DNA from: an uncultured Actinomycetota bacterium
GTDB taxonomy: Bacteria; Actinomycetota; Humimicrobiia; Humimicrobiales; Humimicrobiaceae
DNA length: 64,000 nucleotides
Direction: 5' to 3'
Assembly: GCA_964387355.1 (NCBI GenBank)
Contig: CAYLWJ010000107.1
Coordinates: 1,669-65,668 of the forward strand
In this document: piece after piece, positions 4,531 to 63,479 of the stretch
How positions within the stretch are numbered: the stretch's first letter is position 1
How the letters are laid out: every line of letters begins with the position of its first letter
Translations under genes and position numbers: made by a program
The notes under the pieces: model-generated
What the model saw: the letters and a program-made list of their open reading frames with translations, nothing else
Told to the model about the DNA's origin: nothing
Database searches by the model: none

Positions 4531-5706
4531 TTACTGAAGATGTAACTTCCAATTTATATCAACCCATTTGTTTTTATTAACGCTTTCGAGTATAGCATCA
4601 ATTATTACCATAATTTTATACCCTTCTTCAAAAGTTGGAAAGTCAGGAACAATACCCTTATCTGCTCCATCATTTTTAATATATTCATAAATTCTAGACA
4701 TAATGTTTTTCCATGAATCTCCATAACCTTCAGTAAGCCCGCCTGAAAATGCACTGTACTTTCTAGAGTTTTGGCTCATAAGATTTGGGTCTTTAAACAA
4801 TATTTCATTAGGTTTGGATCTATTACCAATCCATAATTTATTTGGCTCTTCTCCATGCCATGAAATGCTTTTATCTAAGCCAATAATTTCCCATTCAATT
4901 CGTTGTTTTCTTCCTGGACAAACTTGTGCAGCCATTAAAACACCTTTAATGTTATCTTCAAATTTAAACATAACTGTTGCATGATCTTCTGTATCCACCC
5001 TTATTTCTTCATACTCGCCAGGTTTTAATTCTCTTTCCTCAAAAGTTGTAATTCTTATTGTAGGCTTTTTTCTTATTGGAATGAAAGTAGTAATATCTCC
5101 AAAAACTGAAATTATTTTTTTGCCTAAAATCATTTGAACCATCTGCATCCAATGAGAAGCTATATCTGATAGTACCCTTGAGCTTCCCTGATACTTTGCT
5201 TCAACTCTCCAGTTGTAATCACTGTCTCTTGAAAGCCAGTCCTGCATATATCTGCCAAATACAAGATTAATTTTTCCTAGATCTCCTTTCTTAACTATTT
5301 CCTTAGCTTCTTGAACCATTGGATAAAAACCCATATTAAATGTTGTTGCATTAACAACATTTGCTTTTTTTGCTAGTTCTACTAAGTGTCTTGCTTCTTT
5401 TAAGTCCATAGAGAGCGGTTTTTCACAAATTACATGTTTTCTTGCCTCAAGGCATGCTTTTGATACAGGATAATGAAGATTATTAGAACATGTAACATGC
5501 ACAACATCAATTTCAGGGTCATTAACTAAATCTTGCCAGTTTCCATATGCTTTAGGTATATTTAACTGTCTAGCTGCTAAATTGGCTGTCTCTTGATTAA
5601 TTTCAGCTACAGCTAAAATTTCTGGATAACCAAGTCTTCTTACGCTTTCAATATGAACTGGACCAATAAAGCCAGCCCCTACAAACCCTACTCTTATTCT
5701 ATCCAT
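4531..5706 (-). CDS. Gfo/Idh/MocA family NAD(P)-dependent oxidoreductase
   Basis: N-terminus MDRIRVGFVGAGFIGPVHIESVRRLGYPEILAVAE is a Rossmann GxGxxG motif, with a conserved EKP motif (CEKPLSM). Length 391 aa is typical. Confidence 0.8.
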   Translation of the reverse strand: MDRIRVGFVGAGFIGPVHIESVRRLGYPEILAVAEINQETANLAARQLNIPKAYGNWQDLVNDPEIDVVHVTCSNNLHYPVSKACLEARKHVICEKPLSMDLKEARHLVELAKKANVVNATTFNMGFYPMVQEAKEIVKKGDLGKINLVFGRYMQDWLSRDSDYNWRVEAKYQGSSRVLSDIASHWMQMVQMILGKKIISVFGDITTFIPIRKKPTIRITTFEERELKPGEYEEIRVDTEDHATVMFKFEDNIKGVLMAAQVCPGRKQRIEWEIIGLDKSISWHGEEPNKLWIGNRSKPNEILFKDPNLMSQNSRKYSAFSGGLTEGYGDSWKNIMSRIYEYIKNDGADKGIVPDFPTFEEGYKIMVIIDAILESVNKNKWVDINWKLHLQ

Positions 5707-50847: not shown

Positions 50848-51191
50848 ATGTTAAATCAGTTAATGATGAATAATTGATAAAAATAAAAAATTTAAAATAA
50901 TTTGTGCTAACTAAACAATAATTTCTTAGTAAATAAGTAATTATTAAGCTTACCTAGTATAAGCATAGGCTAATTATAGCATAATATTTGAACAATTTCT
51001 TAAAAGAGTAATTTTTGTCAAAACTTAGTCTTACTGTAAAGACCTGTGAATATAGCTCTGATTTACTTATAAGGCTTTGCTTGCAAGAAAAGTTTAAGGT
51101 ATTAAGAAGCCTCACTTATGAGGCTGATTTGCTTATATAGCTTGTTTTATACCTTATAGCCCTAATAAAAAATAGCAATTAAATACAAATT

Positions 51192-51629
51192 TTACTGGCT
51201 TTCTTTTACATCATTTATAAATTCTTTAACTTTTTCTTTTATAATATCTCTAATCTGCCTTGTTTTTTGTAGTTTTTCTTCATAAGTGCCCTCAAGGCTT
51301 GAAGGATCTTCTATATCCCAGTGAATACGCTTAGGAACACCAGGAAAAATTGGACATTTTTGCCCCCTTGATTCATCACATACAGTTATTATATAGCCAT
51401 AAAATCTCTTCTCTTTAAAAAAATCTTTTACATCATCTACACTATTATTTGAAATATCAATTCCATCTTCTTTCATTACCTGTACTGCAAGAGGGTTCAA
51501 CTTTCCAGGCTCAAATCCTGCACTTTCAGCATAAAACATATCACCCCCAAGTGTGTTTAAATAAGCTTCAGCCATTTGGCTTCTTGCAGAATTATGAACA
51601 CATAAAAAAAGTACTCTTATTTTATCCAT
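51192..51629 (-). CDS. arsC: arsenate reductase, LMW-PTP family (thioredoxin-coupled ArsC)
   Basis: CX5R P-loop VLFLCVHNSARSQMAEAY, plus downstream Cys residues (TVCDES...KCP). 145 aa. Confidence 0.8.
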   Translation of the reverse strand: MDKIRVLFLCVHNSARSQMAEAYLNTLGGDMFYAESAGFEPGKLNPLAVQVMKEDGIDISNNSVDDVKDFFKEKRFYGYIITVCDESRGQKCPIFPGVPKRIHWDIEDPSSLEGTYEEKLQKTRQIRDIIKEKVKEFINDVKESQ

Positions 51630-52339
51630 ATAACCTCCTAGAAAATAATTTGTAAAAATATTTTATATTCCCTTCTTTTTAAGAGTTTTTGGCTAAAATT
51701 AGGTGTTAATTAAATATTATACTCCTATTATCTAGAAACTTTTACTATCTATAATGTTTTTATACTGATATATATTACACTATTTAAGCCAACTTCTAAA
51801 ATTAAGTAAAAAAAATTCATAAAAATTTAACATTTATTATTAAACATAGAAAACTTTTAAAAACTATCGTAGAAATCTTTATTAATATATTTTACAAAAA
51901 CTTACTTTTGATCTTTTATAAAACTTTGACAGAAAAGCTTTTTAGATTTTGCTGCAAATTTTGCTAAAAATATTTGTGAAAAACTTTTTTATGAAAAATT
52001 GCTTGAAAAATTAAAAAATTGCTTATTGATGATATATTTAAGGAATAAAGGCATGGTGAAAGAGTATTTTTATTTAATAGTTTTTAAATAACACTTGCAG
52101 ATTCTTTTAATTTTTTTCCAGTTTTCTTTCAATATACATTTTTTAAAATATACCTTACTTACTCTAAAAATATAAAAGCATTAATTTTAACTTTGCTATT
52201 ATTTAATAATATTTAATTTTAGCAGGGTTAATGAATCTAAAAAATGTACACGTTTTTACAAATTATTTTCACAAACTTTTTCCAATGTTAAGAAAGTCTT
52301 TTTTATTTTTAATTTCTTAAGAAAATGTTTCACATAAGG

Positions 52340-53566
52340 CTATTCTTCATAAAAATTATCAATAGCATTATTTATTCTTTCTATTACTGGAGGATGACTA
52401 AAGATAATAAATTTTAGCACTGGACTAGGTTTAACATTTGATAGATTTGAAATAGCAAGCTTTTTAAAGATATTTATCTGGGTTTCTAAATCACCTGTAA
52501 GCTTTAGTGCTGTATAGTCTGCTTGCTCTTCAAATTTTCGTGAAATATAGTTTTGAAATGGAATAGTTATATATGAAATTAAACTAAATAATATAAACAA
52601 TATTAAAACAGACTTTACGCTGACATTTAAATTTAAACCTAACTGAAATAACTTTAAAATAAATAATAATAGAATTATTGAAGCGCTCCCTATTATTAAA
52701 CTTATAAATATATGCTTATATTTCCAATGGCCTATCTCATGCGCAATTACAGAAAGAACTTCATTTTTAGGGCTTTTGTTTAAAAGATTGTCATAAATTA
52801 CTATTCTTTTTGTTTTTCCCATTCCGGTAAAATATGCATTAATTCTTGTTGTTTTTCTGCTTGCATCTGCAACAAGTATCTTATCAACATGTATATCAGC
52901 TTTACCAGCAATTTTTATAATTTCATCTTTAAGCTCTTTATCTTCAAGCTCCTTAAAATTATAAAATAAAGGATCTATAAGAATTGGGAAAATAAAAATT
53001 GCTATTACTAAAAATAAAATAAATATTGCAGAGGCAGCAAGCCACCAATTTTTATGCAGGTGTATAATGAGTATATATATTATTGTAAGTATAAATGTAT
53101 TTATTAAAAGTGAAATAGCTTTATCTTTTAAAATATCCAAAAACCATTCATAAAATGTTTGTTTTGAAAGACCAAACCTATGCTCTAATACAAAGCCACG
53201 GTAGTATTGCAGAGGAAATAAAATAATATAAAGAATGATATTAAAAAGTGCAAAAATACCACATGCAAGTAGGATTGGAATTCTGCTGTTTGAATAAAAA
53301 TTTTTCCAGAAGATAAAAATTATTCCAAACATAAAAATCCAGGAAATAAGCCTTTGTAATACAGAAATTAAAAGAGCAGCCTTGTTGTAGGAGCTAGCTG
53401 TTGTTAAAAAATCAGTATTGAAATACTTTAGTACATCTGGATTATTTGAAGGCTTTATAATGACAGCTGAGATGAAAATTGTTACCAGCATTAAAAAAGC
53501 CAGAAATGTAAGTAAAATAAAAGAGTAAAAAGCCCAGTTATAATTTGCCATTTTTGAAAACTTCAA
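52340..53566 (-). CDS. M48-family (HtpX/Ste24-like) zinc metalloprotease, polytopic membrane protein
   Basis: HExxH VIAHEIGHWKYKH, multiple TM helices, and a downstream glutamate (EEQADYTAL) as third ligand. Confidence 0.8.
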   Translation of the reverse strand: MKFSKMANYNWAFYSFILLTFLAFLMLVTIFISAVIIKPSNNPDVLKYFNTDFLTTASSYNKAALLISVLQRLISWIFMFGIIFIFWKNFYSNSRIPILLACGIFALFNIILYIILFPLQYYRGFVLEHRFGLSKQTFYEWFLDILKDKAISLLINTFILTIIYILIIHLHKNWWLAASAIFILFLVIAIFIFPILIDPLFYNFKELEDKELKDEIIKIAGKADIHVDKILVADASRKTTRINAYFTGMGKTKRIVIYDNLLNKSPKNEVLSVIAHEIGHWKYKHIFISLIIGSASIILLLFILKLFQLGLNLNVSVKSVLILFILFSLISYITIPFQNYISRKFEEQADYTALKLTGDLETQINIFKKLAISNLSNVKPSPVLKFIIFSHPPVIERINNAIDNFYEE

Positions 53567-53623
53567 AATATTTTTATTTTATAAATTTTAATATAAATTT
53601 TGAATATGCTGATACCATCTGTT

Positions 53624-53861
53624 TTGCTTTCCTGACTTCCGCATTTTTAATCTAAACTATACCATAATAAAGTTAACTTAAGTATAAAAATATTGCCTAG
53701 AGGTTAAAAAGCAAATGCATTGACCAGTTAAAAAATAATACTTTACAAATATTAGTATTTTAAACTTTAGCTGAATTTGCAAGAGTAAAAAAATAAAGAA
53801 AATGTAGTGCCCATGAAAAGCTAAATTTAATCTTAATTTTTATAAAAAGTGCGGAAGTCGG
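53624..53861. repeat. 16/18-nt inverted repeat pair (CCTGACTTCCGCATTTTT ... AAAAAGTGCGGAAGTCGG) flanking ~200 nt between the M48 and amidase genes; MITE-like or large RNA hairpin
   Basis: Reverse-complement match read directly from the sequence. The arms are locally GC-rich relative to the surroundings. Confidence 0.4.
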
Positions 53862-53893
53862 AAAATAAGTGTGTTTGCTTAAAAGAAATATAG

Positions 53894-55663
53894 CTATCCT
53901 CTATAATCACTACCAAGAATAATTGTTATATCCACATTATCAATGTTATTACTTGATTGTGAAATCTGACCGACACCTAAATATTTCTTTAAATCTTCTG
54001 CTATTAAGTTTATATCCTGTTTAGAGGTAAATATAATTATTTTAGTAGTTTTATAATTAAAATTATCTGCATTCTTAGTTTCTTTAACAATAATCTGAAC
54101 TTTATCTTTGTTAAAGAATGACTCAATTTTACCTTTAAGTCTTGCAGCAATACCTTGTGTTCCCTGACCATTTAATATGTTTATAGTATATTGGCTTAAC
54201 TGTGTTGAGGACTTAACCAGCTGACTTTGGCTAAAGTCACTTCCAATTATTATAACTATATCTGACACCTGCAAATAGCCTTTGCGGGTGGAAATAACTC
54301 CTGTCTTTAATATACTTTTTATCTCGTCTGCAGCTTTTAAAATTTCCTGATTATTGTTTTTGCATATAATTTGGGTATTTTTGTAGCTAAAACTTTTTGC
54401 ATCAGCAACTTCTACCACTTTATATTTAAAATTTCCATTTAAATCTTTTATTGATGAAACTAATTGTGAAGTTTGAGCAGCTATTCCTTTTATACCAACA
54501 CCGTTTAAAACAGTTATAGTAAATGCAGAACTGGAAATATTTGTATCTTCGCTTTTTGTATTTATATTATTTACACTACTGTTTGCAGTAGTTGCACTAT
54601 AAGTATAGCCGTTTTTTATGTAATTATTTATAAGGCTGTTAAACTCAGGTGATGAAAGAAAATAAGAAAGAACAGCTGATCTTTTCTGATATTTAAGCTG
54701 AGAAATCCAGTAAGCCTCTCCGTTTGGGTCAGGATTTCTATCAAGAACAGTATTATATAGAATATTAATATACTGGGCGTCTGTCAAATTTCTACTATTA
54801 AATTGGTTGCTTAAAATAATGCCTTTTATAACATCTGCATAACTAATTTCACCTGAACTTAACCTACCTGCCCAATTATTTATTGTAGCTGCATCAGGGT
54901 CTATATTTAAACCTTTTTGGTATACTTTTTTGACAAATGCTTGAGCTGATGCAAGCTTTCTTGCCTCTAATATTTCTTTTTCACTTATTTTAAGGTAATC
55001 AAGAATACCATTATAAATTCCAGTTGCAATTTTATCTCTGAAGCCTGCATCATTTAGTTTAGCTTCTTCATCTGGATTTGAAATAAAAGCTGCCTCAACT
55101 AAAGCTGAGACCATTTTTACATTTTTTATTTCTGAAAAATCTGAAGCCTTTACTCCCCTGTTTGCTGTTTTTATCTGTTCTATTACTCTGCTGTTTAAAT
55201 AACTTGCAAGAACTCTGCTGTTAGGTGACTGACTGTAGTAAAAAGTTTCTGTTCCATTTTTTTCTCGGGAAGTATGGCTGTTATTGTGAATACTTATAAA
55301 AATGTTTGCATTGCTTGAATTTACAAAATTAGCAATTTCTTCAAGGGATTTTTTTGTATCATCTTCACGTGTAAGTAGAACTTTAAAGCCAGAGTTTGCA
55401 AGTTTGTCTTTTAGCCTAAAAGCAATATCAAGATTTACATCCTTTTCTTTTAACCCGGATGGGCCTGTTGCACCATGATCATTTCCTCCATGACCTGGAT
55501 TAATGCATATTATAATTTGTGAGTTAGTATCTGCATAGATTGTTTTAACTAAAGTAAGATAAAAAGATGCAAATACAATTACAACTGTTATAAGAATTAA
55601 GAGTGATATTAAAGCTGACTTAAAAACATTTGGACAAGCATTTATTTTTCTTTTTATAAACAT
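53894..55663 (-). CDS. N-acetylmuramoyl-L-alanine amidase (Amidase_3) - DUF4214 - 2x LytR_C domain protein
   Basis: IICINPGHGGNDHGATGPSGLKEKDVNLDIA...FISIHNN is the Amidase_3 motif. DUF4214-like NWAGRLSSGEISYADVIKGIILSNQF. The two C-terminal repeats are near-identical in motif to the LCP protein's C-terminus (GVGQISQSSNNIDNVDITIILGSDY). Confidence 0.8.
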   Translation of the reverse strand: MFIKRKINACPNVFKSALISLLILITVVIVFASFYLTLVKTIYADTNSQIIICINPGHGGNDHGATGPSGLKEKDVNLDIAFRLKDKLANSGFKVLLTREDDTKKSLEEIANFVNSSNANIFISIHNNSHTSREKNGTETFYYSQSPNSRVLASYLNSRVIEQIKTANRGVKASDFSEIKNVKMVSALVEAAFISNPDEEAKLNDAGFRDKIATGIYNGILDYLKISEKEILEARKLASAQAFVKKVYQKGLNIDPDAATINNWAGRLSSGEISYADVIKGIILSNQFNSRNLTDAQYINILYNTVLDRNPDPNGEAYWISQLKYQKRSAVLSYFLSSPEFNSLINNYIKNGYTYSATTANSSVNNINTKSEDTNISSSAFTITVLNGVGIKGIAAQTSQLVSSIKDLNGNFKYKVVEVADAKSFSYKNTQIICKNNNQEILKAADEIKSILKTGVISTRKGYLQVSDIVIIIGSDFSQSQLVKSSTQLSQYTINILNGQGTQGIAARLKGKIESFFNKDKVQIIVKETKNADNFNYKTTKIIIFTSKQDINLIAEDLKKYLGVGQISQSSNNIDNVDITIILGSDYRG

Positions 55664-56125
55664 TTCTACTTAATTGCTATAATAATTGCTATGAATTTAA
55701 AATATAAATTATTTATATTCTAATTTTTATGCTTAATGCTACTTTTTAGGCTACTTCTAAAATAAATAATTGCTTTCTACAATTTTGCTTTTTATAATTT
55801 GCTACTAATAAATACAACAGAATTATTAATTTTAATAATTTAATATTAATATTTACAATATTTATAATATTTACACATAAATATTACACTGTCAATAAAA
55901 ATTGTAATTATAGTTAGCGTCTCAAATCTGGTGACTTGTACCACTCACTTCTGGGCTTTAGGTTCAGTAATTTATTAATTTTTTATATTTTAAAAGGTAA
56001 ATTCATTCCTTTTTTTAATATTTTAATGCTATTTTAATGATATTTTTGTTCTATATGCAAAATTGAATAAAAAACTAAATCATAAGTATTTACTTATAAA
56101 TTGAATAATAAATTAATATTTTACT

Positions 56126-56179
56126 ATAAATAACGCTCAGAAATTAAGTTATTAAAAAATTCATAATAATTTAATATTC
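56126..56179. repeat. ~53-nt dispersed repeat, copy A (copy B at 61305..61357, 2-3 mismatches)
   Basis: tataaataacgctcagaaattaagttattaaaaaattcataataatttaatatt versus tataaataacgctcataattaagttactaaaaaattcataataatttaatatt. Confidence 0.6.
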
Positions 56180-56387
56180 TTAATAAAACTTTAACAAATA
56201 AGTTTAATGTGAATTATTATCTTGTAAGTCCTTGTTGTTAGGTTAAGGAGGTTTTAATTGAAAAACAATAGTGTATTATGCGATGATGATTTAGGAAAAA
56301 TAATGTTTTCTGACGAATACTGGAAAAGTAAAGTATAATATTTAGCCTTTAAGGAATTTTAACAATATGTTTAAGCAACAACAGCTG

Positions 56388-56489
56388 GAAAAAATGTTTC
56401 ACATCAGGCTATTCTTAATAAAAATTATCAATAGCATTATTTATTCTTTCTATTACTGAAGGATGACTAAAAATAGTGAATTTTAATAA
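56388..56489 (-). repeat. duplicated ~100-nt fragment of the 3' end of the M48 protease gene (copy of 52321..52422, ~95% identical), now carrying a premature stop
   Basis: Direct comparison: gaaaatgtttcacataaggctattcttcataaaaattatcaatagcattatttattctttctattactggaggatgactaaagataat versus aaaatgtttcacatcaggctattcttaataaaaattatcaatagcattatttattctttctattactgaaggatgactaaaaatagt. Confidence 0.7.
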
Positions 56490-56698
56490 GGGTAAGTCTT
56501 TATTTTTATAAAGCTAAAATTTATAAAAACTCTTAAGCTAAACCATAATAATAATTAACTATTAAAATAAATTATAATATTATACATTTTGTATATGTAG
56601 CCATATACATAACTAAATTAAATCTCTTTTAAATGGCAAATTAAAGGTTTAAATTAAATTAAAAGCATATAAGATAGATGAGGAGAAGTTTTTAAGGC

Positions 56699-56939
56699 AT
56701 TAAAAAAACAACACTTTTATTTGAAGAAGATGTCTACAATAAATTAAAAGAACGAGCAAAAAGAGAAAATGTATCCATTGGAGAGCTGGTAAGAGAAGCT
56801 GCGGCAACTTTCTATAATATAAAAAGTAAAGAAGATAAATTAGATGCACTTGAAAAGTTAAAATTACTTAATCTGCCCATTGCCGATCAAGAACAAATCG
56901 AAAAAGAAATATTAAAAGGGGTGCTAAATGATAAGTAAA
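56699..56939 (+). pseudogene. ribbon-helix-helix (CopG/VapB-type) antitoxin relic lacking a canonical start (in-frame ATT at 56699)
   Basis: Manual translation (I)KKTTLLFEEDVYNKLKERAKRENVSIGELVREAAATFYNIKSKEDKLDALEKLKLLNLPIADQEQIEKEILKGVLNDK*. An in-frame TAA lies 2 codons upstream. There is no ATG/GTG/TTG in frame. Confidence 0.5.
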
Positions 56940-57128
56940 TATAAGGTATTTATTGATTCAAAAATACCAATGTATGCTGCAGGAAAAGAACATGAAAATA
57001 AGAAACCTGCCATTAGAAATTTTATAGCTTGTTTCCAATGGTGGAATAATTGGTATTACATCTACAGAGGTTCTCCAAGAAATATTATATAGAGAATTAT
57101 ATAGAGTTTATAATATTGAAATCATTTA
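56929..57128 (+). pseudogene. truncated, frameshifted PIN-domain (VapC) toxin relic
   Basis: MISKYKVFIDSKIPMYAAGKEHENKKPAIRNFIA... then, in another frame, ...SNGGIIGITSTEVLQEILYRELYRVYNIEII*. This matches the first ~60 aa of VapC-type PIN proteins. Overlaps the RHH relic by 11 nt. Confidence 0.5.
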
Positions 57129-57282
57129 AAGATTAATAGTAATCTGACTTTAACATTACCTTTAATATTACTATAAAAAACTTAATAAAACTGCAAGAAG
57201 CACACCGTTTGAAATAGGTTAATATAGACTAAATTAGTATTAACAATTACCTTCTTTCAATTTAAATCTCGTTTGTTAGTGG

Positions 57283-58311
57283 TTATTTTTTAGGTATCCT
57301 ATAATTCTTTCCTGTTTCTATAAATGCTTTTATATTAGCTTCAGGAGTTTCTTGTGGTAAATCACACCCTGTACTTAATATAAAATTAGGATAAGGATCC
57401 ATTTCTTTTAGTAAATTACTAACCTCTTCTTTTACCTCATCAGGAGTTCCTCTAAGTATTGTATTAGTTGGACTTATATTTCCAATTAAAACTACATTTT
57501 TTGTAAGAATTTTGGCAGCCTCTTTAAGATCAACTCCAACTTCTTTTGAATCAAGGCTTAAACCATCTACACCTGCGTTTACCATCTCATTAAGCAAATG
57601 CATTGTGTTTCCACATGTATGATAAACTGTATTTACCCCACTATATATACAGCTTTCAACGATATGTCTAACATAATGTGCTGAAAAATTTCTAAATTGT
57701 TCAGGTCCCAGCATTACTGCAGTTGGTTCAAGAACACAAATTATATCTGCTCCAGCAGAAATAAGCATATTTACATATTCCTGTATTTTTTCGGTGGTAA
57801 TATCACATATTTTTCTTAATTTTTCTGGTTCCATAATAGATGCCATAGCTGCTTCATCAGCACCCATTAATAAAGCAGCAACAGAATAAGGACCTGTTAC
57901 ATAAGCTCCTTTTATTACATATTCAGGAAGTCCTATTTTCATAAGCTTAACAGTATTTACATAACCATTAATTCTACTATCAAAAGAAATATTTATACTA
58001 GCAATTCGATCAAGTTCGTTTATGTCAAATTTATCCTTTGGAACAGTTGCAGAATCTTCTCTTGGAAATACAGTAAATCTTCCTAAAGCATTTGCTTCAA
58101 CTGATAAATCCATTAGCGGAAATATTACATCAGGTTTAAATTTTTCTACTAATATTTTTAATACCTTGTAATGCTCACCATAATTTTGTTGAGCAATTTT
58201 AATATTGCTTCCAATAAGCTCAACTCCTGGGAAACCTAAAAGTGGAGCAACTAGCCTTTTGCCTTCCTTGTATTTGTCTTTAACTATTTCTATTAATGAT
58301 TTTCGTTTCAT
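57283..58311 (-). CDS. uroporphyrinogen-decarboxylase (URO-D) family protein (MtaA/CmuA-like methyltransferase or HemE-like)
   Basis: 342 aa TIM-barrel family protein. The N-terminal KRLVAPLLGFPGVELIGSNIKIAQQN and the central YHTCGNT motif are typical of URO-D-like enzymes. Confidence 0.65.
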   Translation of the reverse strand: MKRKSLIEIVKDKYKEGKRLVAPLLGFPGVELIGSNIKIAQQNYGEHYKVLKILVEKFKPDVIFPLMDLSVEANALGRFTVFPREDSATVPKDKFDINELDRIASINISFDSRINGYVNTVKLMKIGLPEYVIKGAYVTGPYSVAALLMGADEAAMASIMEPEKLRKICDITTEKIQEYVNMLISAGADIICVLEPTAVMLGPEQFRNFSAHYVRHIVESCIYSGVNTVYHTCGNTMHLLNEMVNAGVDGLSLDSKEVGVDLKEAAKILTKNVVLIGNISPTNTILRGTPDEVKEEVSNLLKEMDPYPNFILSTGCDLPQETPEANIKAFIETGKNYRIPKK

Positions 58312-58785
58312 ATTAACTTTTATTATACTTTATAATTTATATTTTACTATTTAAAAATTTTATAAAAAAGCCAACCCAATGATAAACATTAAACTATAAA
58401 CCAATTTTTTTAATTTAATAATTAATAGATAATGCTTAAAATAAACAAATTTATTTTATTTTATTTTATTTAGTATACTTATTTCAATGAATAAAATTAT
58501 ATTTGGCAAAAATACATTTAACAAGAAAAGTAAGTATATAATTATCAAGCTTTTTTCACTTTAGAAAATTTTTAAAATAAGAATTTTACGGTTAAAGTTT
58601 TTAACGAAAATTTCATTTACTTGTAAAATTATTATAATATGTGTATATTATTATTATATATTATGAAATAAAAGTAATTAAACAAAAGCAAAAATATTAA
58701 TAACATTAAAGTTAATACAAATTAAAATTATTTAATAAGTAAAAGTATAAAATTATTTATAACATAACAAGGAGATTTAATAAAA

Positions 58786-61203
58786 ATGAAATTTCAAGCT
58801 AAAAAAAGACATTTACTTACCCATAATTTTTATTTCAAATCAACCATTATCATATCAGTTATTACAACAATTTTTACTTTATTTACCTTTTTTAATTTAG
58901 CAGGATGTAATAAAACTATATCTGAACAATCACAATTAAAGGAAACTGCTACAACTACAGAAACTAATTCTTCTACTACTGAAACAATATCTTTAGAAAC
59001 AAAAATCGAAACAACAACCACAATACAGGATAAGTTGTTTGATATAAGAAATGTTACAGAACAACAGAGAAATGAAGCACGAAAATTATTTCCCTCTCAT
59101 ATTACCAGCGCATTTCTGGAAGGAACCATGGAACCCCCCGAAGGGTTTGATTCATGCATAGAAGCCCAAATTGGAAAAAATCGTTTAGATGAAATTCGCA
59201 AAGGACTGAGTAAACCCACAGGAGAAGAAAATGATATTGCTGCACTTTGCTTAATGAGTTTAGGCATAAATCCTGATTTACTTTTAAGTGGTTCTTTTAT
59301 AACCTCAGTAAAAAATGTAGAATCAAAATATAAAGTTGCACCTGGAAATCTTTCTGGTTGGTTTAAAGAAGGTCAAGAAGCTGATATTATGCTTTCAGGT
59401 TTTGGGTTTAACAACTCTGGCGGTCCCCTCTCTTTTAATCATCCTAAAGGCATCGCTACTGATGGTAAACGCCTGCTTCTTGCAGATGGAAACAATAATC
59501 GAATACTTATATGGAATAATCTTCCCAATGGAAATACACCTCCAGATATTGTTTTAGGACAACCTGATTTTAATACCAACGAGCCTGGTGACGGACCTAA
59601 TCAGATGAATTGGCCAGTAGGTGTTGCAACTGATGGAACTCGAGTAGTTGTTGCTGATACTAACAACGACAGGATTTTAATTTGGAATAAATTTCCAACC
59701 AGTAATGGACAATCAGCAGATATTATTTTAGATGGAAAAGCAGGTCGAGAGGACATAAGAGTAAATAAAAGCACATTTACCTGGCCATGGGGCATTTGGA
59801 CTGATGGTAAAAAGCTTGTTATAAGCAGTACTTTTGGTGGCTATGTACTTATATGGAATACATTTCCTATAAAAAATAACCAACCAGCTGATATCTTTCT
59901 TACTGCTGGTGGTAAAATGGGAACACCTAGAACTATTACAAGTAATGGTAAGTATCTAATAGTTGGTGACCATAATGCTAAGGAAACAAGCTCTGAAATT
60001 GGAAATTTTTTCTGGAAAGAGTTCCCTACAAAAGATGACCAGCCTTTTGACTTTTTTGCACCCGATCCAATAGATAAAAAGGGGGCATGGATGACAGGTG
60101 ATTTTACCTCTGATGATAAACTTATTATGATAGGCTCAACCCTTCACATATGGGACTTGCCACCTTCAAGTGAAGATGATAAACCATCCATTTCAATATC
60201 AGAAAAAGCATATAGATTTATCGGTGGTGATGGGGCAAGTCTTGCCATAGCTGGAAATAAAGTTTATATATCTTTATACAATGCAAATTGCATTGTTGGA
60301 TATAATAATATTCCAAATGATTTACAAGCAAAACCAGATTTCTCTATAGGAAGCCCAGATATTAACACTAATACTCTTGAAACAAATTATTTTATTACTA
60401 ATGGTGTCCCAGCCACCAATGGAGAAAACCTTTTAGTCTCATCAGATTTTGATAAAAAATTATATGTTTGGAAAAAAATTCCTGATGAAAATGGTGCATG
60501 GCCAGACTTAGTTTACAGCTTATCTGAAGAATTTTGGGATAATGCACTCTGGGAAAATATATTTGCTTTGGCTGGAAAAACTTCAGTTGTAATATGGAAA
60601 AATCTACCTCTTGACGGCCAAAAACCAGATATTACCTTTAAGGATAATATTGGGGGTATATCTTTAAAGGATTTAAAAGGTGTTGCCCTAGATGATAAGT
60701 ATTTTTATTTGTCTGATAATGAAGCTAATAAGGTTTATATATGGCAAGGCATACCTGACGGTAGAACTCCACCAATTTACAGTCTGTCAGTTAATGGTCC
60801 ATGGAGACTATCAAGTGATGGAAATTATTTAGTTGTTACATCAATTTTCAATCACACAGTTAACATCTATAAAGTTTCTGAACTATCATCTAATTCAAAA
60901 CCTGTTACTGTTATTGGTGAAAAAATTAAGATGTTTAATTTACCGCAAAATGCAATAGCATCAAAAGGTAGCTTGTTTATTGCTGATACAGGTTTCCATA
61001 GAGTTCAAATATGGAAAAATATAAAAGATGCAATAAACGGAAAAGAACCAGATGTAATCCTTGGAAAAGGTGGTCCAAATATTCCTCCTATGCCAACAAG
61101 AAATTCATTTTTTAATCCGGCTGGACTTGCCTTTGACGGTAGTTATCTTTGGGTAAGTGAATTAAAATTTAGTTTCAGAATTTTACGCTTTTCAGTTAAA
61201 TAG
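58786..61203 (+). CDS. large NHL-repeat beta-propeller lipoprotein
   Basis: Lipobox FFNLAGC, a Thr-rich linker, then about 12 repeats of the pattern P(D/E)IVLGQPDF...G(I/V)ATDG..L.VAD..NNRILIWN, typical of NHL repeats. Confidence 0.75.
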   Translation: MKFQAKKRHLLTHNFYFKSTIIISVITTIFTLFTFFNLAGCNKTISEQSQLKETATTTETNSSTTETISLETKIETTTTIQDKLFDIRNVTEQQRNEARKLFPSHITSAFLEGTMEPPEGFDSCIEAQIGKNRLDEIRKGLSKPTGEENDIAALCLMSLGINPDLLLSGSFITSVKNVESKYKVAPGNLSGWFKEGQEADIMLSGFGFNNSGGPLSFNHPKGIATDGKRLLLADGNNNRILIWNNLPNGNTPPDIVLGQPDFNTNEPGDGPNQMNWPVGVATDGTRVVVADTNNDRILIWNKFPTSNGQSADIILDGKAGREDIRVNKSTFTWPWGIWTDGKKLVISSTFGGYVLIWNTFPIKNNQPADIFLTAGGKMGTPRTITSNGKYLIVGDHNAKETSSEIGNFFWKEFPTKDDQPFDFFAPDPIDKKGAWMTGDFTSDDKLIMIGSTLHIWDLPPSSEDDKPSISISEKAYRFIGGDGASLAIAGNKVYISLYNANCIVGYNNIPNDLQAKPDFSIGSPDINTNTLETNYFITNGVPATNGENLLVSSDFDKKLYVWKKIPDENGAWPDLVYSLSEEFWDNALWENIFALAGKTSVVIWKNLPLDGQKPDITFKDNIGGISLKDLKGVALDDKYFYLSDNEANKVYIWQGIPDGRTPPIYSLSVNGPWRLSSDGNYLVVTSIFNHTVNIYKVSELSSNSKPVTVIGEKIKMFNLPQNAIASKGSLFIADTGFHRVQIWKNIKDAINGKEPDVILGKGGPNIPPMPTRNSFFNPAGLAFDGSYLWVSELKFSFRILRFSVK

Positions 61204-61304
61204 TTTTTAAAAATAATATATAAAAATATAGACTGAGAGCTAAATAAAGGGTAATAGTTTATAAAAATTATTATTAATTATTACTATTAATAAATTACTA
61301 TTTT

Positions 61305-61357
61305 ATTATAAATAACGCTCATAATTAAGTTACTAAAAAATTCATAATAATTTAATA
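61305..61357. repeat. ~53-nt dispersed repeat, copy B (see 56126..56179)
   Basis: Same alignment as copy A. Lies ~100 nt downstream of the NHL-repeat lipoprotein gene. Confidence 0.6.
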
Positions 61358-61486
61358 TTTTTTTAGCCAATTTGTAAAACTATTATTTAAAGAATTTTTG
61401 CTATTACTCCGTTATGTTTTAAACTTAGATTTTTAACAAGAATATTTATATTTGCAAAATAAATAAAACTTATTTTTTACTTATTG

Positions 61487-61759
61487 CTAATAATTACTCC
61501 TAAAAACATATTTTATTACACCTTTAGGGCAAATATCAATGCATTTTCCACAGAGTATGCACTCAGAATTTTCCATTTTGCCTGTCTGAACCATTTTCAT
61601 TACATCAAGACTCATTGTACAAGCTTTTGAGCATTTCTCGCATTTTATGCATTTATCCTTTTCAGCCCTTAATCTAAGTGAGGGAATTTTTAAAATAATT
61701 CCAAGCTTTCTTCCAGCTACCAGTAAAAATGATAGTAACTTGTATATGAGAGAGTTCAA
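61487..61759 (-). CDS. 2x[4Fe-4S] ferredoxin-domain protein with N-terminal hydrophobic segment
   Basis: CIKCEKCSKAC and CILCGKCIDICP motifs (CxxCxxCxxxCP). Confidence 0.65.
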   Translation of the reverse strand: MNSLIYKLLSFLLVAGRKLGIILKIPSLRLRAEKDKCIKCEKCSKACTMSLDVMKMVQTGKMENSECILCGKCIDICPKGVIKYVFRSNY

Positions 61760-62015
61760 AAGGCATAAAAAATATCACTATGAAGTATTTCAGCTATTTA
61801 TAATTAAAGTCTCTCGACTATAGTTTTAACTTTACAACTTTAATAATAATTAACTTTAAAATTTATATACTAAACATATTTTAAAATGGTAAATTTAATT
61901 GTATAAATAAAATAAATTTAATTTTTATTTTTAATATTTTCCGTTAAAATATCAATATATTTAAAATTAATTTATTAAATTTTACTAACATTCATTTAAT
62001 TAAAATTGATTTAAA

Positions 62016-63479
62016 TTGATTTATAATACTGAAGAAAATAGAGCAAAATGCATTTGTCCTTCATGCCCTAGTTTTCCTCGAACCTGTATTGGAGAGTTAC
62101 TTTACTGTTCTACTGGGGCAAGTAAATGTGACATTGAAATCCACAAATGTATTTGTGACAAATGTGAAGTATATATTGAAAATAAATTGGGTGGGCTTTA
62201 TTTTTGTGCAAGAAATATCACAAGTAGTGGCAAGCACTTATCCCGTAAAAGAAAAAATGATGAAGAGATTTCCTTTTACAATAAAATGCTTTATATTAAG
62301 CAAATTGCTGAAAGTGGCAAAAGTATAATTAGTTCCATGGGCTCTCAAAAATTTATCCCATTTAGCTTTGACCAAATTCATTTTATCCCAGCACAAATCC
62401 ATAAAATACCTCTAGAAAGAGATGATTTTGTAAACACTGAAATTATTATAGGAAAATCATCAAAAAACCCATTAAGGTTATCATCACCTATAATGTTAAC
62501 TGGAATGAGTCTAGGTGCAGTATCAAAAAATTTAAAATTAGTATTTGCAAAAACAGCATCATTGCTTAAAATAGCGTTTAATTCAGGTGAAGGCGGAATA
62601 CTTGATGAAGAACTGGATATAGCAGGTAGCTTTCTTATAGGCCAGTATTGCACAGTAGATAATAAAGTTGATTTAGAAAGATTAAATAGGGTCGCAGCAA
62701 TAGAAATTAGGTTTGGACAAGGAGCATATCCTGGTTGGGAAAGTTACCTTCCACCAGAAAAATTAAGCCCTGAAATTGCAAACATTAGAGGCATAAGAGG
62801 CACAGAACCAATATATTCACCTGCTCATCACTCTGATATAAATAATAAAGCTGAGCTAAAAGCAAAAATAAACTGGATAAGAAAAAATACTGCTGGCATT
62901 CCTGTTGGGGCAAAAATCGGCTGCGGAGATATTGAAAATGATATTAAAATTCTTGCCAGCGCTGGTGTTGACTTTATAGCAATTGATGGATTCGGTGGTG
63001 GGACAGGTGCTACGGAGAGTTTTGTCAGAGAAAACGTTGGTCTACCTTTAATTGCTGCCCTTCCAAGAGCAAATAAAACTTTAAAAAAACTCGGTGTTAA
63101 AAATAGAGTTTCACTTATTGCAGGTGGAGGCCTAAGAACTTCTGCTGATTTTGCAAAATGCCTAGCAATGGGTGCTGATGCAGTATATATAGGAACAGCA
63201 GCTTTAATTGCAGTTAATTGTGATCAATACAGAGTGTGTCACACTGGACTTTGCCCAACGGGTATAACAACTCATAAAGAGGAACTTACAAAACACTTAG
63301 TTATAGAACATGGAGTAAAAAAACTTACAAATTTTATCAAAGTGTCAACTGAAGAGATTGCTAATTTTTCTAGAATAGTTGGCAAAAACGATATTAATTT
63401 GCTTAACATACAAGATTTAGTATCAATTAATAAAGAGCTATCTGAGCTTACAGGCATAAAATGGCTTAATGGTCACTAA
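62016..63479 (+). CDS. glutamate-synthase (GltB FMN-binding domain) family protein with Cys-rich N-terminal extension; TTG start
   Basis: FMN-domain motifs IIIGKSSKNPLRLSSPIMLTGMSLGAVS, GEGG, IEIRFGQGA.PG, DGFGGGTGA, GGGLRT. The N-terminal ~60 aa contain 10 Cys (CICPSCPS...CIGELLYC...CDIEIHKCICDKCEV). Confidence 0.75.
   Translation: MIYNTEENRAKCICPSCPSFPRTCIGELLYCSTGASKCDIEIHKCICDKCEVYIENKLGGLYFCARNITSSGKHLSRKRKNDEEISFYNKMLYIKQIAESGKSIISSMGSQKFIPFSFDQIHFIPAQIHKIPLERDDFVNTEIIIGKSSKNPLRLSSPIMLTGMSLGAVSKNLKLVFAKTASLLKIAFNSGEGGILDEELDIAGSFLIGQYCTVDNKVDLERLNRVAAIEIRFGQGAYPGWESYLPPEKLSPEIANIRGIRGTEPIYSPAHHSDINNKAELKAKINWIRKNTAGIPVGAKIGCGDIENDIKILASAGVDFIAIDGFGGGTGATESFVRENVGLPLIAALPRANKTLKKLGVKNRVSLIAGGGLRTSADFAKCLAMGADAVYIGTAALIAVNCDQYRVCHTGLCPTGITTHKEELTKHLVIEHGVKKLTNFIKVSTEEIANFSRIVGKNDINLLNIQDLVSINKELSELTGIKWLNGH

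Follow-up and report, generated by a model that had tools for sequence, protein, structure and literature searches.

Analysis of a 64,000-nt stretch of contig CAYLWJ010000107.1 from an uncultured Actinomycetota bacterium (hereafter the window; G+C 28.5%) indicated that its largest gap free of open reading frames (ORFs), the 1619-nt interval 55664-57283 between a cell-wall amidase gene and a URO-D-family gene, is inert genomic debris in which two unrelated scars meet at a breakpoint near 56486-56527, a reading to which we give a probability of about 85%. One scar is a non-functional duplicate of the 3' end of a nearby M48 protease gene, and the other is a vapBC-type toxin-antitoxin (TA) cassette in which both genes have become pseudogenes. 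The longest ORFs inside the interval encode 54, 49, 33 and 32 aa, which agrees with the claim of an earlier note on this DNA that no intact ORF lies between the amidase and URO-D genes. A search with six-frame fragments, blastn and tblastx against all 97 fetched loci recognised nothing in this zone apart from the M48 fragment and the TA relic.

A VapBC-type cassette that decayed in place

A database search identified an 81-aa protein (P0001) with 95% identity to the ribbon-helix-helix (RHH) relic in the gap, and the contigs encoding this protein carry an intact two-gene cassette. In the 5.3-kb metagenome contig ENA ERZ27247220 (L081 hereafter) the antitoxin gene (1591-1836) and a 138-codon PIN toxin gene (1826-2242) overlap by 11 nt (ATGATAAGTAA), and intact cassettes are present in two further loci, L083 and L084, as well. 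The L081 toxin matches Pfam PF01850 with 42.4 bits against a cut-off of 23.6 and the intact antitoxin matches RHH_1 above its cut-off, while comparison of the two intact proteins with NCBIfam and PDB sequences gave no match above threshold. From these domain matches the cassette is predicted to be a VapBC-type type II TA system composed of a PIN toxin and an RHH antitoxin. The parts of the window that correspond to it are as follows.

56527-56693, plus strand: promoter/operator region of the dead cassette, homologous to the sequence upstream of intact vapB in L081
56694-56938, plus strand: vapB-type RHH antitoxin pseudogene, with 95% amino acid identity to the intact 81-aa P0001 and an RHH_1 match
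56928-57128, plus strand: vapC-type PIN toxin pseudogene, aligned to the intact L081 orthologue
57129-57282, no strand assigned: convergent intergenic spacer from the cassette to the 3' end of the URO-D gene, 87% identical to L081

In L081 the cassette is followed by a convergent URO-D gene with 96.2% nucleotide identity to that of the window, with orientation and distance conserved, and the homology is collinear from window 56527-58471 to L081 1441-3624 with a 250-nt deletion as the sole interruption. Since this collinear intact cassette adjoins the orthologous URO-D gene, we conclude that the common ancestor already carried the cassette at this locus and that it decayed there. The comparison with related genomes that the earlier note had proposed has therefore produced an intact VapBC at the very site, and the finding changes how the zone is to be interpreted. 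The earlier note had taken it for the scar of a rearrangement or insertion that deposited and then inactivated a TA cassette. The non-coding debris, the dead cassette and a breakpoint at ~56486-56527 are all there, but the deposition has to be given up, as the intact L081 cassette occupies the same place beside URO-D in the same orientation.

Five lesions separate the window cassette from L081, two of them in the antitoxin gene. The vapB start codon has changed from ATG to AAG at 56695, and a run of eight adenines has shortened to seven (56702-56708), which shifts the frame. The RHH frame that is left (56696-56935) comprises 80 residues without an ATG, GTG or TTG start, much as the earlier note described it, and still matches Pfam RHH_1 at 22.9 bits, above the curated cut-off of 20.5. 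The 11-nt vapB/vapC overlap (ATGATAAGTAA), another feature noticed earlier, is present at 56928-56938 and is identical in the intact L081 cassette.

The toxin gene carries the other three lesions: an inserted T at 57013 that shifts the frame at codon 29, a GAG to TAG change at 57025 (codon 33), and a 250-nt deletion that removed codons 56-138 and left the junction TTATATAGA at 57085-57093. In the intact sequence each end of this deletion falls within a copy of TTATATAGA (L081 1983-1991 and 2233-2241, with L081 1991-2240 absent from the window), and the loss can thus be attributed to slippage between 9-nt direct repeats. According to motif inspection of the intact protein, the deleted part holds two of the four acidic residues of the PIN active site, D105 (in PRDAIHVA) and D124 (in SFDKHF); E47 is out of frame in the window toxin, and the C-terminal 60% of the protein is lost. 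Taken alone the toxin relic has no Pfam match, and codons 1-55 retain 95% protein identity (52/55) to the L081 orthologue.

The earlier note had placed the PIN frameshift after ~50 aa. It lies at codon 29, with the shifted ORF running on to 54 aa, and neither the nonsense codon nor the 250-nt deletion had been recorded. The broader claim, that the PIN frame is broken, is upheld: the frame stays discontinuous after any single-base correction, and a full-length PIN protein from the window locus is impossible without the deleted 250 nt.

The conserved block upstream of the cassette holds a TATAAT sequence and the palindrome TGTATATGG-AG-CCATATACA, which is perfect (9+9) in two further assemblies of the locus, L085 and L086, and has one mismatch each in the window and in L081. 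Its form in the window, TGTATATGT-AG-CCATATACA at 56590-56609, can be regarded as a putative antitoxin operator.

In the frame-corrected relics the ratio of synonymous to non-synonymous codon differences from L081 was 6:4 for vapB and 6:3 for vapC, compared with 32:6 for URO-D. The coding parts of the relics are 95% identical to L081, against 87-90% for the surrounding non-coding DNA. These codon ratios, together with a coding identity that still exceeds that of non-coding DNA, indicate that constraint on the cassette is relaxed and that its loss is fairly recent when set against the divergence from the L081 lineage. A type II TA operon of the VapBC kind had long been resident directly downstream of URO-D before decaying there; from what is understood of TA biology, the toxin was probably disabled first, after which the antitoxin would have become dispensable.

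Recurrence of the lesions in other assemblies

The locus was recovered in three further assemblies. The JGI contig Ga0136652_1002183 (L087) aligns collinearly with window 50908-58476 (99.79% identity, 16 substitutions and no gap), and two Logan contigs match without gaps at 99.2% (L085, from SRR7048519, over window 56443-57807) and 99.1% (L086, from SRR7983873, over window 56429-57560). All five cassette lesions are common to the three, which differ from the window at scattered single-nucleotide polymorphisms (SNPs). The M48 fragment is whole in L087, while L085 and L086 start inside it and cover its last 43 and 57 nt respectively, short of base 56417.

Because the lesions and the fragment recur in this way, misassembly or sequencing error is very unlikely. 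The idea that the lesions are such errors and that the locus really encodes a working VapBC draws on the fact that the window derives from an assembly of an uncultured organism and that the change from eight to seven adenines lies in a homopolymer, an error-prone context. This would, however, require each of five independent lesions to be an error, and every indel, the nonsense codon, the start change and the 250-nt deletion recur in three assemblies from different samples, whose SNP differences argue against common erroneous reads; we regard this explanation as barely credible. The duplicated fragment is likewise very unlikely to be an assembly chimera, a concern of the earlier note, as it recurs together with the indels in L087 and, in part, in L085 and L086.

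Of the 16 substitutions that distinguish L087 from the window, half are confined to two clusters of 22-23 nt, which lie upstream of the M48 gene (53579-53600) and inside the amidase gene (55072-55094). This distribution suggests small patches of recombination or conversion between strains.

A duplicated 3' end of the M48 protease gene

The second scar involves three features.

52340-53566, minus strand: intact M48 protease gene encoding 408 aa, with Pfam Peptidase_M48 and M48_N matches
52322-52416, minus strand: source copy, consisting of the last 25 codons of the intact M48 gene with its stop and the following 18 nt, by nucleotide match
56391-56485, minus strand: non-functional M48 3' fragment, corresponding to codons 382-408 and the first 18 nt after the stop, by nucleotide match

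The source copy and the fragment repeat 95 nt in direct orientation with 94% identity, at a distance of 4069 nt, and form the strongest non-self match in a self-comparison of the whole window (E 6e-35). Their score of ~143 bits, a figure taken from the equivalent match in L087, compares with a maximum of 45 bits in five Markov-shuffled windows. The duplicated M48 end some 4 kb from the intact gene, first pointed out in the earlier note, was accordingly borne out by self-comparison, with its limits refined to 56391-56485 and 52322-52416. No further M48 pieces were found in the window.

Read on the minus strand, the fragment gives KFTIFSHPSVIERINNAIDNFY followed by a stop, with 85% protein identity to M48 residues 382-408, and the 18 nt beyond are those found after the stop codon of the intact gene. 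In the outgroup loci L088 and L089, whose M48 proteins are 84% and 75% identical, the gene ends three codons earlier at a TAG, so that the window protein is three residues (YEE) longer than these relatives (window 52340-52351; L088 ~1657; L089 ~3165), and the derived TAG to TAT change is common to the source copy and the fragment. Since they share both this change and the 18 downstream nucleotides, the fragment can be interpreted as a recent intragenomic copy and not as an old paralogue. Three of the four differences between the two copies that outgroups can polarise arose in the fragment, and two of those three are non-synonymous. The new in-frame stop reported earlier (GAA to TAA at base 56417) is indeed present in the window but is not fixed: the 99.8%-identical L087 is without it, and we therefore take it for a strain-level polymorphism in freely drifting sequence.

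The breakpoint and the origin of the fragment

Homology to L081 starts at window ~56527, within the last codons of a conserved ORF of 40 codons (MINLVFCIKSKESFKRIVNTLKIDNNFELEDFTPNLETLQ) that precedes intact vapB in L081 (region 1233-1454) and L082 (region 516-737) and extends to 47 codons in L083 (region 172-416); this ORF has no Pfam match. The M48 fragment ends at ~56485-56490. As these two positions are so close together, the breakpoint can be confined to ~40 nt (~56486-56527). From L081 position 1233 onward L081, L082 and L083 are 97.5-99% identical, and upstream of it L082 and L083 no longer match L081, where an EVE-domain gene is found, with a different gene end and terminator in L082. 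Such different left flanks among strains that are otherwise 97.5-99% identical place the cassette at a hot spot of gene-content variation. The genes flanking L081 and L089 (EVE, photolyase, Fer4, PAS-GGDEF and radical SAM) were looked for in the window and none was found.

Given that the fragment derives from the 3' end of a gene on the minus strand, the lost body of the M48 copy would have lain where the upstream region of the cassette now starts. The most economical history appears to be a tandem duplication of a 4069-nt unit (52322-56390, comprising the M48 gene, the amidase gene and the spacer), followed by a deletion that would have collapsed the second unit to its first 95 nt and also taken the small ORF preceding vapB. 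Alternatively, the fragment may be a templated filler of ~95 nt, copied from 4 kb away during break repair or template switching at the left border of the cassette with no tandem duplication, an origin that we consider rather unlikely though worth weighing. The fragment is discrete, as at either end a few bases suffice for identity to drop from 94% to background level, and its right edge lies at the breakpoint. Additionally, the two strongest window repeats that are independent of protein genes each have a copy in this area of ~400 nt, which would fit repeated capture of short copies. Set against this, the borders of the fragment show no convincing microhomology, the second repeat family has three copies, any of which may be the source, and to our knowledge templated insertions of ~100 nt are not commonly documented as an outcome of bacterial repair.

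Direct repeats that include a gene 3' end are a classic signature of integrative elements, and TA cassettes often ride on such elements, so that the two copies might be attachment-site duplications left by integration into the M48 3' end. The geometry is wrong for this: the fragment is found past the 5' end of the intact M48 gene, and the 4-kb segment between the repeats consists of M48 and amidase. Genes for an integrase, a transposase or replication are absent both from the segment between the repeats (52417-56390 holds M48 and amidase only) and from the sequence next to them. Neither a query with the PIN protein nor a 32-nt pattern from the M48 fragment found a match in viral contigs, and the cassette, which is ancestral to the locus, stands outside the segment that the repeats enclose. 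An attachment-site origin is for these reasons highly improbable.

Several points weigh against inert debris produced by duplication, collapse and decay. The two vapB lesions together leave an ATT at 56699 in frame, 12 nt after a GAGGAG Shine-Dalgarno sequence, and this codon could yield a 79-aa RHH protein lacking only two N-terminal residues, although we rate translation of a residual antitoxin from it as unlikely. The variable left flank means that the breakpoint beside the fragment could reflect the general hot spot, with no collapse of a duplication. No genome with an intermediate state, either a full tandem duplication or a locus without the fragment, was found, and the next-closest homologues of M48 (84% aa) and amidase (60% aa) have entirely different neighbours. 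Synteny followed through M48 homologues of 84%, 75% and 69% and amidase homologues of 60% and 59% identity likewise gave no shared neighbours from which the ancestral order could be reconstructed. The debris reading assigns the ~700 nt at 55664-56390 nothing beyond a presumed amidase promoter and does not account for the intergenic repeat at 56079-56189. Two other readings, which we consider very unlikely, are that the antitoxin half is not fully dead and is kept as an orphan regulator or anti-addiction antitoxin and, separately, that the site is a hot spot that repeatedly captures copies of ~100 nt from nearby.

The remainder of the gap and its surroundings

The other features of the gap and its flanks are listed below.

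53894-55663, minus strand: cell-wall amidase gene (Amidase_3, DUF4214 and LytR_C), one flank of the gap
55664-55904, no strand assigned: extremely AT-rich region (7-27% GC in the composition profile) upstream of the amidase gene, with no ORF and no Rfam match
56079-56189, plus strand: intergenic repeat, with a second copy at 61261-61362 and a weaker copy at 51772-51845
56244-56335, plus strand: AAGGAGG Shine-Dalgarno sequence and a 26-codon ORF with a TTG start (MKNNSVLCDDDLGKIMFSDEYWKSKV), spacing 6 nt
57283-58311, minus strand: URO-D-family gene, the other flank of the gap

The AT-rich region next to the amidase gene presumably contains its promoter and 5' leader. Adjacent to it, positions 55905-55970 form an island of 43% G+C amid sequence of 7-18% G+C, with a weak hairpin and T-run at 55951-55967 on the plus strand; the fold of this island (tested over 55890-55995) was not significant on either strand. 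Apart from that hairpin, promoter and terminator scans did not exceed the shuffled expectation. Fold z-scores ranged from -1.2 to +1.5, with no significant RNA structure in the gap and no significant folding stability for either M48-fragment copy. A tRNA/tmRNA scan found none within the gap, and an Rfam scan of 51000-62500 on both strands (E<=1) gave nothing relevant and one chance match at 60391.

The copies of the intergenic repeat at 56 and 61 kb are 84% identical over ~105 nt, with a core of 92% over 76 nt (56106-56181 and 61288-61362), and constitute the second-strongest non-tRNA repeat of the window, one copy lying ~200 nt from the M48 fragment. A 25-nt core, AAAAAATTCATAATAATTTAATATT, occurs in three plus-strand copies (51810-51834, 56154-56178 and 61335-61359) where none is expected, and nowhere else in the 64 kb; the three lie within 10 kb, each in a long intergenic region past the 3' end of a minus-strand gene or fragment. 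An extension of the M48 duplication to the repeat copies at 51 and 56 kb, as one longer decayed duplication, was considered and rejected, because the intervening sequence is unalignable and the 56-kb copy is far closer to the 61-kb copy than to that at 51 kb. The 61-kb copy is adjoined by a 90-codon 4Fe-4S ferredoxin-like ORF on the minus strand (61487-61759, TTG start) that resembles the C-terminal part of a larger protein and is possibly another truncated gene.

The 26-codon ORF at 56244-56335 is identical in the same-species L087, and the other fetched loci contain no homologue of it. It may encode a small protein or a leader peptide, or be what is left of a lost gene.

The nearest species-representative matches of the window URO-D are uncultured Actinomycetota metagenome-assembled genomes, including Candidatus Humimicrobium oleiphilum with 72% aa identity, which gives an approximate placement as a low-GC, Humimicrobiia-like actinomycete. 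A URO-D synteny search of species-representative genomes gave closest matches (79% and 78%) with different neighbours, and exact-protein look-ups found neither the window URO-D nor the amidase on record. A region just upstream of URO-D (window 58327-58367) is repeated in L081 upstream of the photolyase gene (5134-5175) with 88% identity over 42 nt, which suggests a shared promoter or leader motif.

Comparison with known systems

The gap is best annotated as a vapB/vapC pseudogene pair and an M48 gene fragment, and calls for no search for a novel element. Beyond annotation its import is small, although it provides a clean, dated case of a TA system in decay, since five lesions could be mapped by comparison with an intact orthologue from the same locus. 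The lineage concerned is a poorly known, low-GC one within the Actinomycetota, and its gene order around this locus is documented here to be fluid.

In VapBC systems a PIN-domain toxin that cleaves RNA (VapC) is neutralised by the product of an upstream, translationally coupled antitoxin gene, whose DNA-binding fold may be of the RHH, AbrB, HTH or PHD kind. In its layout the cassette resembles these systems: it is bicistronic with the antitoxin first and has an 11-nt stop/start overlap, the antitoxin is predicted from its Pfam RHH_1/RH3_dom matches to have an RHH N-terminal DNA-binding fold, and the palindrome just upstream would suit autoregulation. The intact orthologue encodes a 138-aa PIN toxin in which motif inspection places the acidic residues D10, E47, D105 and D124. 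The intact relatives differ from VapBC in having the extra conserved 40-codon ORF upstream, and the window copy differs in being a pseudogene pair whose four-residue acidic active site is incomplete and whose genes are both untranslatable as an intact module. As it lacks both an intact active site and translatability, the window copy is filed as a vapBC pseudogene rather than a functioning system.

Decayed TA loci are commonplace, and so are the fragment scars that collapsed duplications leave. The present locus shares with decayed chromosomal TA loci its multiple independent disabling mutations, a slippage deletion between short direct repeats and a junction of variable gene content, and in this comparison nothing about it is unusual; it is a typical example from an uncultured low-GC Actinomycetota (Humimicrobiia-like) lineage. 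The M48 fragment resembles remnants of collapsed tandem duplications in directly repeating a short gene end at a distance of a few kb from the intact gene and in its signs of neutral drift (non-synonymous changes and a polymorphic stop). It differs in that only 95 nt survive here, in that no intermediate genome was found and in that the duplication unit, 52322-56390, is a putative one.

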